This document shows positions 15,793 to 18,151 of a stretch of DNA of 64,000 nucleotides, piece by piece. This DNA comes from Eubacteriales bacterium (GTDB lineage: Bacteria > Bacillota > Clostridia > Oscillospirales > CAG-272): NCBI GenBank assembly GCA_045577415.1, contig JAZNII010000094.1, positions 1,434 through 65,433 on the forward strand, given 5' to 3'. The notes beneath the pieces were generated by a model that searched no databases, had not been told where the DNA came from, and saw nothing but the letters and a program-made list of their open reading frames with translations. Position 1 is the first letter of the stretch. Each line of letters starts with the position of its first letter. The translations under genes were made by a program, and so were the position numbers.

Positions 15793-15831
15793 AACACCGC
15801 CGAGAGTAACCGTTTGGTCGCTCTCGGCGGT
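15793..15831. repeat. 39-bp direct repeat, copy 1 (terminator-type hairpin after dnaE)
   Basis: AACACCGCCGAGAGTAACCGTTTGGTCGCTCTCGGCGGT is identical base-for-base to 18113-18151. Stem is CCGCCGAGAG/CTCTCGGCGG. Confidence 0.9.
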
Positions 15832-15849
15832 AATTCTAATTAAGTTTCA

Positions 15850-16923
15850 CTAAATAATGTCAATAGGCAACTTATGCGTTTGAAAAATATGTCTCCGTAT
15901 TCTATCAGCCAATTTACCTTCATTCTCATACGGGATTTTAGTTTTTTCAATTTCAAAACCTTCAAGCAAAGGCGAGGTATGAACTAAATTTTCTTCAAGA
16001 GAATCAAATCTTTCCGCAAGTGAGATAGCCTCACATATTTTTTCTTTTGCTTTGTCTATCTCTCCGTACTTGTAATATAAGCAAGCGAGAGAAGCAAGAG
16101 AGAAAGCCATATTGATATAATTCTTGCCAAAATCCTCATCCGTGTAGATAATCTTGTTTACCGCGACCAATGACTCAAGCACTTCTATTCTTTCTTTTAT
16201 AGGAACATCCGCGCGATACACCCAATTTACGGTTATCACATCATTTAGGAGAAATATAAGCTCCGAAATTGCCGCTTTACTTGCCTTTTCTCGTCTTTCA
16301 TCCTTATAAAGACGACAAAGCAAATAATCACGACAGTTTTGCATTAACGGCATCTCGTTTATTATCATTTCCGCATCGCTAATCGAAACACCGCTTCCTT
16401 GAATATTGCTAAGCTTTATATAAAAGCCTATGACAATTTTCTTTGCCCAAACTCTAATACTATCAATCGTACAGTTATCCCGAATTCGCTCGTATACTGA
16501 AAATATTTCATTTCTTTCTTCGATTAACACCTGATTTTGATTTTGCGCATACAAAACCAAAGCGTTCAAGTAACGCACCAGCAATCTGTATTCGGAGGGA
16601 TAACGGGCAACTGATTCCTTCATTACAGCAACAAGTGTTTCGCAGTCATGCGCTTGCCATAGTGCATAGTATTTTTCTTCATACTCGGCAATTTCTTTTT
16701 CTCTATTCACATCATAGCTCAAAAGATAGTCGATCGATACGCCGAAAAAGGAAGCTATTGACGGAAGCATATAAATATCGGGGACAGTATCTCCGCGCTC
16801 CCACTTGCTGACCGCTTGAAATGACACCCCTAAAAAATCAGCTAATTTTTCTTGTGTCAAGCCCCTCTCTGTTCTTAAACTGCGAACCTTTTCTCCAAAT
16901 TCAAGCTTCATATTAATTTTCAC
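15850..16923 (-). CDS. XRE-family HTH transcriptional regulator with a long TPR-like C-terminal domain (RNPP-like architecture)
   Basis: N-terminal [29 protein letters not shown]. The C-terminal ~280 aa is helical repeat-like. The GTG 16923 or ATG 16911 start region overlaps the gap stop. Confidence 0.8.
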
Positions 16924-17929
16924 TCGCCTCCATTATTTTGATCAGATCAAGCACCTTATTTGAATACCCCCACTCGTTATCGTACCAAGAAACAAGTTTA
17001 AAGAATCTCGGATTCAACTCAATACTTGCTGTCGCATCATATATCGAGGTTCTGTCATCGGAATAAAAATCGCTTGAAACTACTGCTTCATCGGTATAAC
17101 CCAAAATTCCCGAAAGATTGGTCTCGGATGCTTGCTTGATACACTTATTTATTTCTTCCAAAGAAGTTTCACGTACTGTCCGAACCGTCAAATCCACCAC
17201 AGAAACATCAATGGTAGGAACTCTGAAAGCCATACCCGTGATTTTTCCTTTAAGCTCGGGAAGTACAAGTACACAAGCCTTAGCCGCTCCGGTAGATGAA
17301 GGAATGATATTAACAGAAGCTGCTCTGCCGCCTCGCCAATCCTTCATGGATGCCGCATCAACCGTTGTTTGCGTATTAGTTGTTGCGTGAATTGTTGACA
17401 TCAATGCTTCTTCAACACCAAAATTATCTGAAATCACCTTCAAAAGAGGAGCCAAGCAGTTGGTAGTACAAGATGCATTTGAAACGATCTTCATATCCGA
17501 GGTATATTTGTCGGTATTAACACCGCAAACAAATGTTGGTGTCTCTTTATCCTTTGCGGGCGCGGTTATAACCACCTTTTTCACACCTGCGCGCAAATGC
17601 GCCGAGGCTTTCTCCGTGGTGCAGAATACGCCGGTCGATTCGACAACGTAATCTACTCCAAGCTCTCCCCAACGAATCATTTCCGGGTTCTTTTCAGCAA
17701 AAGTCTTGATTTCTTTGTCTTCAATAATAATGCTGCTATCCGTATATGCAATGTTTGCTTTATAGATTCCGTGAACCGAGTCGTGTTTCAGCATATAAGC
17801 CATATATGCCGCGTCAATAAACGGATCGTTTACTGCTACGACTTGAAAGATGTCACTATGCATCAATGCCGCACGCATAACTAATCTGCCAATACGTCCA
17901 AAGCCGTTAATACCAATTTTGATACTCAT
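16913..17929 (-). CDS. gap: Glyceraldehyde-3-phosphate dehydrogenase, GapA/eukaryote-like type I
   Basis: INGFGRIGR; [21 protein letters not shown]; active site [12 protein letters not shown]; HATTNTQ; WRGGR; GMAFRVPT; [10 protein letters not shown]. Confidence 0.95.
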
Positions 17930-17960
17930 AATAAATACTTCCTTTCGTTATTTCACCTAC

Positions 17961-17989
17961 ATTATACCATCATTGTTTTTACAGGTCAA
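17961..17989 (-). promoter_or_regulatory. Sigma-A promoter TTGACC-17nt-TATAAT for gap
   Basis: Read on the minus strand: -35 at 17984-17989 and -10 at 17961-17966. GAAAGGAAG RBS precedes the gap ATG. Confidence 0.6.
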
Positions 17990-18028
17990 TAACTTAGCAA
18001 GAGAAGTTTATTCTAATAACAAGAGAAT

Positions 18029-18077
18029 TTTCTAATGTGTATAAATGCCATTAGAAATACTTGACAATGGTACCATT
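18029..18077. promoter_or_regulatory. Operator-like inverted repeats upstream of the gap promoter
   Basis: TTTCTAATG-N11-CATTAGAAA at 18029-18057 and the perfect 12-bp palindrome AATGGTACCATT at 18066-18077. Confidence 0.4.
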
Positions 18078-18112
18078 ACCACTTTGTTTGTGAAGTATAA
18101 AATCCTAAAGTG

Positions 18113-18151
18113 AACACCGCCGAGAGTAACCGTTTGGTCGCTCTCGGCGGT
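18113..18151. repeat. 39-bp direct repeat, copy 2 (terminator-type hairpin after the pgcA-like gene)
   Basis: Identical to 15793-15831. In this copy the stem extends to 14 bp (AACACCGCCGAGAG/CTCTCGGCGGTGTT). Confidence 0.9.

Follow-up and report, generated by a model that had tools for sequence, protein, structure and literature searches.

A conserved terminator-type hairpin at a variable cassette slot between pgcA and dnaE in uncultured gut Clostridia

The 64,000-nucleotide (nt) stretch of an Eubacteriales bacterium analysed here (assembly GCA_045577415.1, contig JAZNII010000094.1, positions 1,434 to 65,433; hereafter the window) carries a two-gene operon between pgcA and dnaE, with a copy of the same 39-bp hairpin-forming repeat on either side of it. 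Taken in the order pgcA to dnaE, the conserved left flank is a pgcA-like phosphoglucomutase/phosphomannomutase gene (18165-19877, minus strand; Pfam PGM_PMM I-IV), and the conserved right flank is dnaE, encoding the alpha subunit of DNA polymerase III (12118-15786, plus strand; Pfam PHP, DNA_pol3_alpha, finger, HHH_6 and OB domains). Between them, on the minus strand, lie gap, which encodes a type I glyceraldehyde-3-phosphate dehydrogenase (GAPDH; 16913-17929; Pfam Gp_dh_N and Gp_dh_C; TIGR01534 at 427 bits against a cutoff of 367), and downstream of it a gene for a 353-amino-acid (aa) XRE-type helix-turn-helix (HTH) regulator with an all-helical, TPR-like C-terminal domain (15850-16911; Pfam HTH_3, E 2.7e-16). 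The sigma-70-type promoter of this gap-regulator operon is at 17961-17989 on the same strand (-35 at 17989-17984, -10 at 17966-17961). It reads TTGACC, 17 nt, TG-n-TATAAT, with 11 of 12 matches and an extended -10, and is kept in two homologous operons (L001 and L007; L numbers denote loci). Just upstream of the -35 are two direct operator-like repeats, TTAGAAAATTCTCTTG at 18020-18035 and TTAGAATAAACTTCTCTTG at 17998-18016 (minus strand), which bring the 5' edge of the module to 18036. A 76-nt spacer (18037-18112, minus strand) then separates this edge from the pgcA-side repeat and is unmatched in the other copies of the module; within it, at 18066-18077, lies AATGGTACCATT, a perfect palindrome of 12 nt.

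The repeat, AACACCGCCGAGAGTAACCGTTTGGTCGCTCTCGGCGGT, occurs exactly twice in the window, both times on the plus strand and in direct orientation. Copy 1, on the dnaE side, occupies 15793-15831 with its core palindrome at 15797-15830; copy 2, on the pgcA side, occupies 18113-18151 with its core at 18117-18150 and an extended stem at 18109-18158. No third copy was found in the 64 kb at up to 3 mismatches (chance expectation 0), and a scan allowing up to 3 mismatches over both 10-nt arms and a loop of 10-18 nt revealed no further member of the hairpin family in the window. The bases flanking the two copies are dissimilar, and both copies fold into very stable predicted hairpins (-28 to -40 kcal/mol, z about -7 to -10). 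Copy 1 lies 10 nt past the dnaE stop codon on the plus strand and 19 nt past the regulator stop codon on the minus strand, where it is followed by a UGUUUUUGU tail; copy 2 lies 14 nt past the pgcA stop codon and upstream of the gap promoter. The terminator tail is good on the regulator side of copy 1 and weaker toward dnaE and for copy 2. Judged by anatomy and position, both hairpins are putative bidirectional intrinsic terminators. The initial annotation, made from the sequence letters, had described identical 39-bp direct repeats with differing flanks, each a terminator-type hairpin, and exact matching, the flanking bases and the folding energies together with placement after stop codons bear out this description.

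The pgcA/dnaE junction is a cassette slot that is empty, with one hairpin, in one species and differently filled in six, the window included. Congeners were reached via proteins 93-95% identical to the pgcA product of the window; their pgcA genes are only 83-87% identical in DNA, so they represent different species. The dnaE product is 89% identical in amino acids to that of L004, and dnaE genes are 78-83% identical in DNA among the congeners. Flanking gene order is kept (htpG-PDT-TSCPD-pgcA ... dnaE-whiA-murB) and the interval differs in each genome. In L216 (GCA_045653805.1) the slot is empty: the pgcA stop codon is followed by 13 nt, a single hairpin (CCGCCGAGAG TGACAAATGTCA CTCTCGGCGG), 22 nt and the dnaE stop codon. 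The filling is one ECF-sigma fusion gene with two hairpins in L209; an HtrA-like protease gene and a LysM-CAP protein gene with one hairpin, on the dnaE side only, in L210; six genes with five hairpins in L004/L005; two ABC transporter genes and an XRE regulator gene with one hairpin, after pgcA, in L208; an XRE regulator gene and a gene for a 532-aa protein, with no hairpin after pgcA, in L214; and gap and its regulator, with two hairpins, in the window. All slot hairpins share one polarity, and their positions correspond between genomes, after pgcA in L004, L208, L209 and L216 and at the dnaE 3' end in L209 and L210. Pairs of pgcA-side and dnaE-side hairpins coexist in L209 and L004 with different loops, so that two resident terminators are as likely an origin of such pairs as duplication, in which case L216 would be a deletion.

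These comparisons agree with two proposals of the initial annotation, namely that the junction holds a self-contained cassette, as its variable filling in congeners indicates, and that a syntenic junction with a single hairpin and no insert should exist, as found in L216. A third proposal, that the cassette could be lost by recombination across the repeats, is compatible with L216, whose form is what such a deletion would leave; no joint skipping the cassette was present in the fragmentary contigs from sequencing runs of related organisms (at most 8% of words), and a search for RNA runs of the region found none. No copy outside this slot turned up in the window or in the ~99 kb of congener DNA that had been selected independently of the hairpin, which indicates that the hairpin is not a general terminator of these genomes. 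No hairpin was found in 1.09 Mb around pgcA of more distant relatives, and a scan of JGI metagenomes for pgcA returned only distant relatives (at most 72% identity), without the hairpin and without dnaE adjacency. The initial annotation had also recorded that no integrase or transposase is present, and none was found within the cassette or within ~10 kb of the slot in any genome. The interval itself holds only gap and the regulator, inspection of genes and Pfam domains revealed no transposase and no terminal inverted repeats at the cassette, and no tRNA gene lies at the slot. Neither intI, attI nor Pc was found, and the neighbours of the slot out to ~10 kb are housekeeping genes in the window, L209, L210 and L216. 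In congeners, a ComEC-type competence gene lies ~5 kb from the slot. A second, unrelated GC-rich palindrome (ACGTAGGGCGGGGGCTTGCTCCCGCC or CATCGTAGGGGAGGGGCTTGCTCCTCCC) follows pgcA at L212 11760-11900 and L213 11760-11865, where these contigs break; it also occurs upstream of sigma-fusion genes in L051 and L112 and may be another repeat family.

The hairpin belongs to a family distributed across gut Clostridia. A scan of one genome per species with the pattern CCGCCGAGAG-N12-16-CTCTCGGCGG, which leaves the loop unspecified, matched at least 119 stretches, about 100 of them from metagenome-assembled genomes (MAGs) of uncultured gut or rumen Clostridia, Oscillospiraceae or 'Eubacteriales'; the remaining stretches listed are chance matches in high-GC Actinobacteria. 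The family consensus is a near-invariant 34-nt palindrome, CCGCCGAGAG TAACCGTTTGGTCG CTCTCGGCGG, between an A-rich tract (A predominant at -8 to -2) and a T-rich tract (T at +35 to +43). Its loop was not part of the search pattern, yet is conserved at 58-97% per position among the 76 distinct listed copies with a 14-nt loop. The palindrome departs a little from symmetry and is given a direction by the T-G pair and A-C mismatch conserved beside its stem. Both 34-nt cores in the window equal the family consensus exactly; the same 34-mer is found again at least 16 times, spread over 14 further MAG loci, and all 39 nt recur in another species (L012). The identity of the two window copies is thus no proof of recent duplication, and the 39-mer is not simply a terminator duplicated by one insertion, as first proposed, but a member of a family present in over 100 MAG loci. 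At the level of the clade it is a dispersed repeat at many terminators, the condition that the initial annotation had named as refuting its proposal, but over the 64 kb and 99 kb covered it is not a general terminator within the genome. An Rfam scan of 15000-19000 at permissive E-values gave only chance matches, none of them at the hairpins. Among viral contigs, plasmids and phages, the hairpin was found in one viral contig and one plasmid (a chance match in a haloarchaeon) and in no phage, which argues that it is not phage- or plasmid-borne. Literature searches by keyword and by hairpin sequence returned nothing relevant.

The genes to which family hairpins are attached are mostly regulatory. 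Gene context was counted for the 132 family copies among the matches listed, 113 of which have the 3' end of a gene no more than 150 nt away; 39 of them are flanked by convergent genes. The most frequent partner is a family of ECF-sigma fusion proteins of 520-560 aa with sigma regions 2 and 4 (TIGR02937 above cutoff) and a C-terminal extension of ~350 aa without assigned function. A family hairpin lies 5-48 nt past the stop codon of such a gene in 49 cases, and within 20 nt in 47 of these. Polarity relative to sigma-fusion genes is strongly biased (40 forward and 4 reverse, p=1.7e-8). Of the listed sigma-fusion genes whose 3' end is complete, nearly all precede a hairpin (50/55), a count that includes loci chosen for having one; for the sigma-fusion genes that were not the reason for locus selection, the count is 8/12. 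The proteins are 21-91% identical to one another (mean 34%), while the hairpin is hardly altered. Together with XRE-HTH regulators, S-adenosylmethionine-dependent methyltransferases, HD-domain proteins and LysM-CAP proteins, which are the other recurring neighbours, sigma or HTH genes adjoin most of the listed hairpins (94/132 for sigma, HTH, methyltransferase, HD or LysM-CAP). No recombinase, transposase or HUH family recurs among 78 hairpin neighbours. Where two listed hairpins are less than 8 kb apart, their spacing peaks at 1.74-1.90 kb, the length of one sigma-fusion gene, and neighbouring hairpins are in direct orientation in 18 pairs and inverted in 3.

Sigma-fusion genes also have a conserved block ~75-135 nt upstream of the open reading frame (ORF), seen in L004, L009, L011, L019, L030, L066, L117, L121 and ~25 other loci. 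It consists of a sigma-70-type promoter, GTAGACTAATTCACAATTTTATGATATAAT (TAGACT-17-TGnTATAAT), followed after ~30 nt by a second element, (C/T)AACC, ~16 nt, CACTATAT, which resembles an ECF-type autoregulatory promoter. Where a family hairpin is present upstream of a sigma-fusion gene, it ends ~6-8 nt before TAGACT. When C-terminal domains were compared as profiles, no relationship was apparent between that of the XRE regulator and those of the sigma-fusion proteins.

Several blocks of homology between loci end at or near family hairpins. A 2.1-kb block that is 93.9% identical between L220 and L004, in differing contexts and orientations, has the outer edge of a hairpin as its exact limit in both loci; it comprises a sigma-fusion gene, the intergenic region between divergent genes and the opening 200 nt of an XRE gene. 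A second block shared by L220 and L004 (87.8% identical) ends 12 nt past another hairpin, and homology between the window and L220 stops at the outer edge of copy 1. Private loop variants are common to the hairpins of one locus, with AGGCAYTAAGGCTT present three times in L004 and CCGTAATTG in L036, which points to exchange between copies. The XRE gene at L004 8001-9065 is a mosaic of two L220 paralogues (2848-3915 and 3965-5029): its first 200 nt are 94% identical to XRE354, and nt 43-1065 are 88% identical to the gap-linked XRE355. This mosaic is consistent with recombination between inverted HTH-coding 5' ends, which would make these conserved ends an additional substrate of exchange.

The gap-regulator operon is probably a portable, accessory unit. 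The module extends over 2.19 kb (window 18036-15850) and comprises the operator-like repeats, the promoter, gap and the regulator gene. A homologue of the regulator lies beside gap in L001, L007, L211, L217, L219 and L220, with different neighbours each time. At different loci these are an ABC transporter and SodC, ICMT and GalT, other XRE genes, or Jag; in L220 they are an XRE/sigma-fusion pair and a gene resembling the PBECR4 nuclease. The operon closest to that of the window (L217 7041-10752, GCA_054297975.1; GAPDH 94% identical) is flanked by RuvX and, on the opposite side, by an HTH gene, ParB (ParB_N) and a relaxase (PF03432), suggesting that it lies beside or inside a mobilisable element. 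DNA identity of the module to the window is 80-81.5% (70% in L007), and homology begins at window position 18036 in L220, L217, L219, L211 and L001 and extends as far as the regulator gene does. Four other contexts (L001 ~6823-6860, L211 ~2893-2926, and upstream of gap in L217 and L219) have a cousin of the hairpin, diverged in sequence (TCTCCGAGG TGATCGTTTGATCA TTCTCGGGGA), 10-15 nt upstream of the operator repeats; the L001 cousin aligns to the family consensus at 23/34 positions, and the polarity of the cousins is opposite to that of window copy 2. The GAPDH of the cassette has only six protein clusters at 88% identity or more, followed by others at 80% and 72%, versus roughly 58 clusters at 93% or more for pgcA of the same genus, which suggests that it is an accessory paralogue. 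The initial annotation had called the cassette foreign. The word is too strong given the modest compositional shift and the closest cassette relatives, which come from the same group of gut Clostridia.

The explanation that we favour, with moderate confidence, is that family hairpins serve both as terminators or insulators and as short stretches of shared homology through which cassettes are gained, swapped and lost, the pgcA/dnaE junction being a slot that currently holds a portable gap operon. Copy 2 would end pgcA transcription and shield the gap promoter from read-through, and copy 1 would end both the gap-regulator operon and dnaE. Each hairpin would also act as a portable homology of 34-39 bp and, being palindromic, as a likely place for breakage or slippage, a role suggested by its being the only sequence common to otherwise unrelated units and by the mostly direct orientation of neighbouring copies. 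Host recombination could then gain, swap or delete units at hairpins with no recombinase in cis, and deletion across the two window copies would leave one hairpin, recreating the L216 form. Several observations weigh against this explanation. For RecA-type recombination, 34 bp of shared sequence is a marginal length. At its 5' edge the gap module stands 76-77 nt away from the hairpin instead of reaching it, and in L001, L211 and L007 the module ends in other terminators, although a true family hairpin follows the regulator in L220. The slot fillings of L210 and L214 lack a family hairpin after pgcA, about half of the sigma-fusion genes lack one upstream, and the comparisons are all between species, with no presence/absence polymorphism seen within one. 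The conservation of the hairpin sequence also exceeds what a terminator needs and, like the conserved polarity, hints at a sequence-specific partner, protein or RNA; our model leaves this conservation unexplained.

A different account, which we hold to be possible but rather unlikely, makes the hairpins passive terminators, retained because they function well and inherited with expanding regulator paralogues whose promoters are conserved to the same degree, with turnover at the slot brought about, as in the minimal mobile elements of Neisseria, by homologous recombination between flanking genes after DNA uptake or by illegitimate recombination. Conserved flanks around variable content, an empty site, the absence of mobility genes and the nearby ComEC-type gene all fit it, as does the 77-nt offset of the gap module from the hairpin. 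The promoter block shared by sigma-fusion genes further suggests that conserved non-coding parts are a property of that gene family. What this account leaves unexplained are the homology blocks that end exactly at hairpin edges, the excess of direct over inverted neighbours (18 versus 3), the private loop variants within one locus and the near-invariance of stem and loop beside proteins at 21-34% identity. The initial annotation had instead envisaged a single ancestral hairpin at a dnaE>terminator<pgcA junction that was duplicated by one foreign insertion, which could have been a target duplication or a Campbell-type integration of a circle bearing a single hairpin. The single hairpin of L216 is exactly the ancestral form that this predicts, the window copies are direct and 100% identical over 39 nt, the GC content of the insert is below that of its flanks, and direct repeats at both ends are what an island bounded by attL and attR would have. 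We nevertheless consider it unlikely, as both copies equal a consensus whose 34-mer and 39-mer occur elsewhere, as the end hairpins of L209 and L004 are both present with differing loops, and as there is no integrase and the module occurs elsewhere without a constant terminal hairpin. Target-site duplications of known transposons and insertion sequences are also far shorter than 39 bp (2-14 bp). A 39-bp target-site duplication was dropped outright for want of a transposase and terminal inverted repeats and because the 39-bp repeat belongs to the family and recurs elsewhere. The possibility of an IS200/IS605-type element, whose ends would be hairpins, was likewise dropped.

Recognition of the hairpin by an enzyme acting in trans, such as a RAYT (REP-associated HUH transposase), an integron-like integrase or another hairpin-binding nuclease or recombinase, would account for conservation of sequence and polarity beyond structural need, including the A-C mismatch and the T-G pair, for the co-oriented arrays and for cassette-like units of one or few genes between hairpins. 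No gene of this kind was found in more than 130 loci, nor did any recombinase family recur among the 78 neighbours; the density of copies is low (slot copies only in 64 kb and 99 kb), the cassettes bring their own promoters and occur in both orientations, and viral contigs, plasmids and phages are essentially free of the hairpin, so that we regard this reading as highly improbable. Scarcely more favoured is a broader version, in which the 34-nt hairpin would be the recombination site of an unrecognised cassette system of gut Oscillospirales with no integrase in cis, its enzyme being encoded elsewhere or replaced by hairpin-stimulated host recombination. One polar palindrome would then both terminate transcription and capture, shuffle and excise regulator cassettes, namely ECF-sigma fusions, XRE/RNPP regulators, methyltransferases and the accessory GAPDH operon; this, too, we judge unlikely. 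Assembly artefact is the least probable explanation and, in our view, very improbable indeed. The shared 39-mer could in principle have led the assembler to place, between pgcA and dnaE, a gap-regulator segment belonging to a different locus or organism, since the hairpin occurs in many organisms of the same kind of sample, its contigs adding up to a depth of 300-900, compared with 4-60 for the flanks; L212 and L213 are contigs that break off shortly past pgcA, and the exact arrangement of the window is recorded in one contig only. Two mis-joins would be required, however, and 39 nt is less than the final k of usual assemblers. Filled slots ending in hairpins were also assembled independently in several genomes, the L004 structure twice (L004 and L005), and the L004 slot holds a related regulator followed by a hairpin in the same orientation.

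The hairpin and its slot resemble several known systems and differ from each of them in part. Like intrinsic bidirectional terminators, it has a GC-rich perfect stem with a 5' A-tract and a 3' T-tract, lies 5-20 nt past stop codons and is often common to convergent genes. Ordinary terminators are not conserved between genes or species, whereas this family is near-invariant across more than 100 loci and has a fixed polarity relative to one gene family; as far as its sequence goes, the hairpin is ordinary as a terminator in form and extraordinary in conservation. REP/BIME elements, REPIN-RAYT systems, paired Neisseria DUS and Correia elements consist of small conserved palindromes that lie outside coding sequence at the 3' ends of genes and can end or stabilise transcripts and act as points of recombination. 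The family hairpin is likewise a conserved extragenic palindrome at gene ends, but in contrast to REP and REPIN-RAYT it appears sparse and tied to accessory genes, with slot copies alone in the 64 kb and 99 kb covered, and has no RAYT-like or HUH gene among the 78 neighbours or near the slot, although the genomes beyond these loci may hold one. Its hosts, uncultured gut Clostridia, also set it apart from REP-type elements. One-gene units between co-oriented hairpin repeats, in a slot that is empty or variably filled in relatives, recall integron attC arrays. An integron was dropped from consideration, since the hairpin is a perfect palindrome with 10-bp arms and no attC core sites, the cassettes are self-promoted and lie in both orientations, and no intI, attI or Pc is nearby. 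The minimal mobile elements of Neisseria, whose alternative cassettes are swapped through homology in the flanks, share the conserved housekeeping flanks, the unrelated alternative inserts, the empty form and the absence of mobility genes; unlike them, the slot described here has at its unit boundaries a conserved hairpin that accompanies the same gene families at other loci, and the comparison is between species rather than strains.

If such a role for the hairpin holds, a conserved terminator hairpin would be a standard connector for accessory regulatory genes in uncultured gut and rumen Clostridia, which would explain the spread and reshuffling of ECF-sigma fusions and of an extra GAPDH operon without transposases. 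The hairpin could also serve as a sequence tag for cassette boundaries and variable slots in MAGs, would point to a probable reason why contigs break, and may be mis-joined, in assemblies of gut metagenomes, and is predicted to be a compact, strong bidirectional terminator for engineering these organisms.

The cassette itself encodes a putative autoregulated operon. An AlphaFold model of the regulator (pLDDT 90, built from 37 homologues) supports an XRE HTH domain joined to a TPR-like domain with an RNPP-like fold: the top 15 PDB matches are PlcR, ComR, Rgg2 and PrgX together with one uncharacterised putative Listeria regulator, PlcR, ComR and Rgg2 being the best, and the RNPP matches have E values of 1e-4 to 1e-2 and TM of 0.25-0.46. 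In this predicted all-helical architecture the regulator resembles the RNPP proteins PlcR, ComR, Rgg and PrgX, and gut Clostridia yielded 480 homologues. A pheromone peptide gene was not identified for the regulator, although no systematic search for small ORFs was made; the only room for one in the cassette is the 76-nt spacer. The regulator probably controls its own operon through the two operator-like repeats, its candidate binding site. A regulator in one operon with a GAPDH gene is also found in cggR-gapA of Bacillus, but CggR is a DeoR/SorC-type protein encoded upstream of gapA, whereas the XRE/TPR regulator of the window is encoded downstream of an apparently accessory GAPDH gene. The content that the initial annotation had given for the unit, a promoter, gap and an overlapping XRE/TPR gene, is correct except for the overlap. 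The most likely start of the regulator gene is the ATG at 16911, which makes it abut gap (stop codon 16913-16915), and an overlap arises only with the GTG at 16923; the TPR assignment agrees with the structure model, and no TPR was detected by Pfam.

The GC contents first estimated from spot counts (~32% for the regulator, ~45% for gap and ~57% for pgcA) were measured as 38.0%, 42.3% and 49.4%, a milder contrast, with 49.2% for dnaE and 44.1% for the whole window. In the windowed analysis that had been suggested as a check, the 2.28-kb insert (39.0% GC) is low, falling in the lowest 3% of equal-sized windows, but still inside the range of the window. The lowest point of the profiled stretch is a sharp GC trough of 29.7% at 23000-23400, in the intergenic region beyond htpG. 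Elsewhere in the window, a degenerate tandem repeat at 48163-48375, within the ORF at 47824-49077 (minus strand), comprises 7 copies of a 30-nt family resembling ATGATGATGCTCGTG, which on the coding strand would encode a His/Glu/Asp-rich stretch (HEHHH...) in a 417-aa protein.

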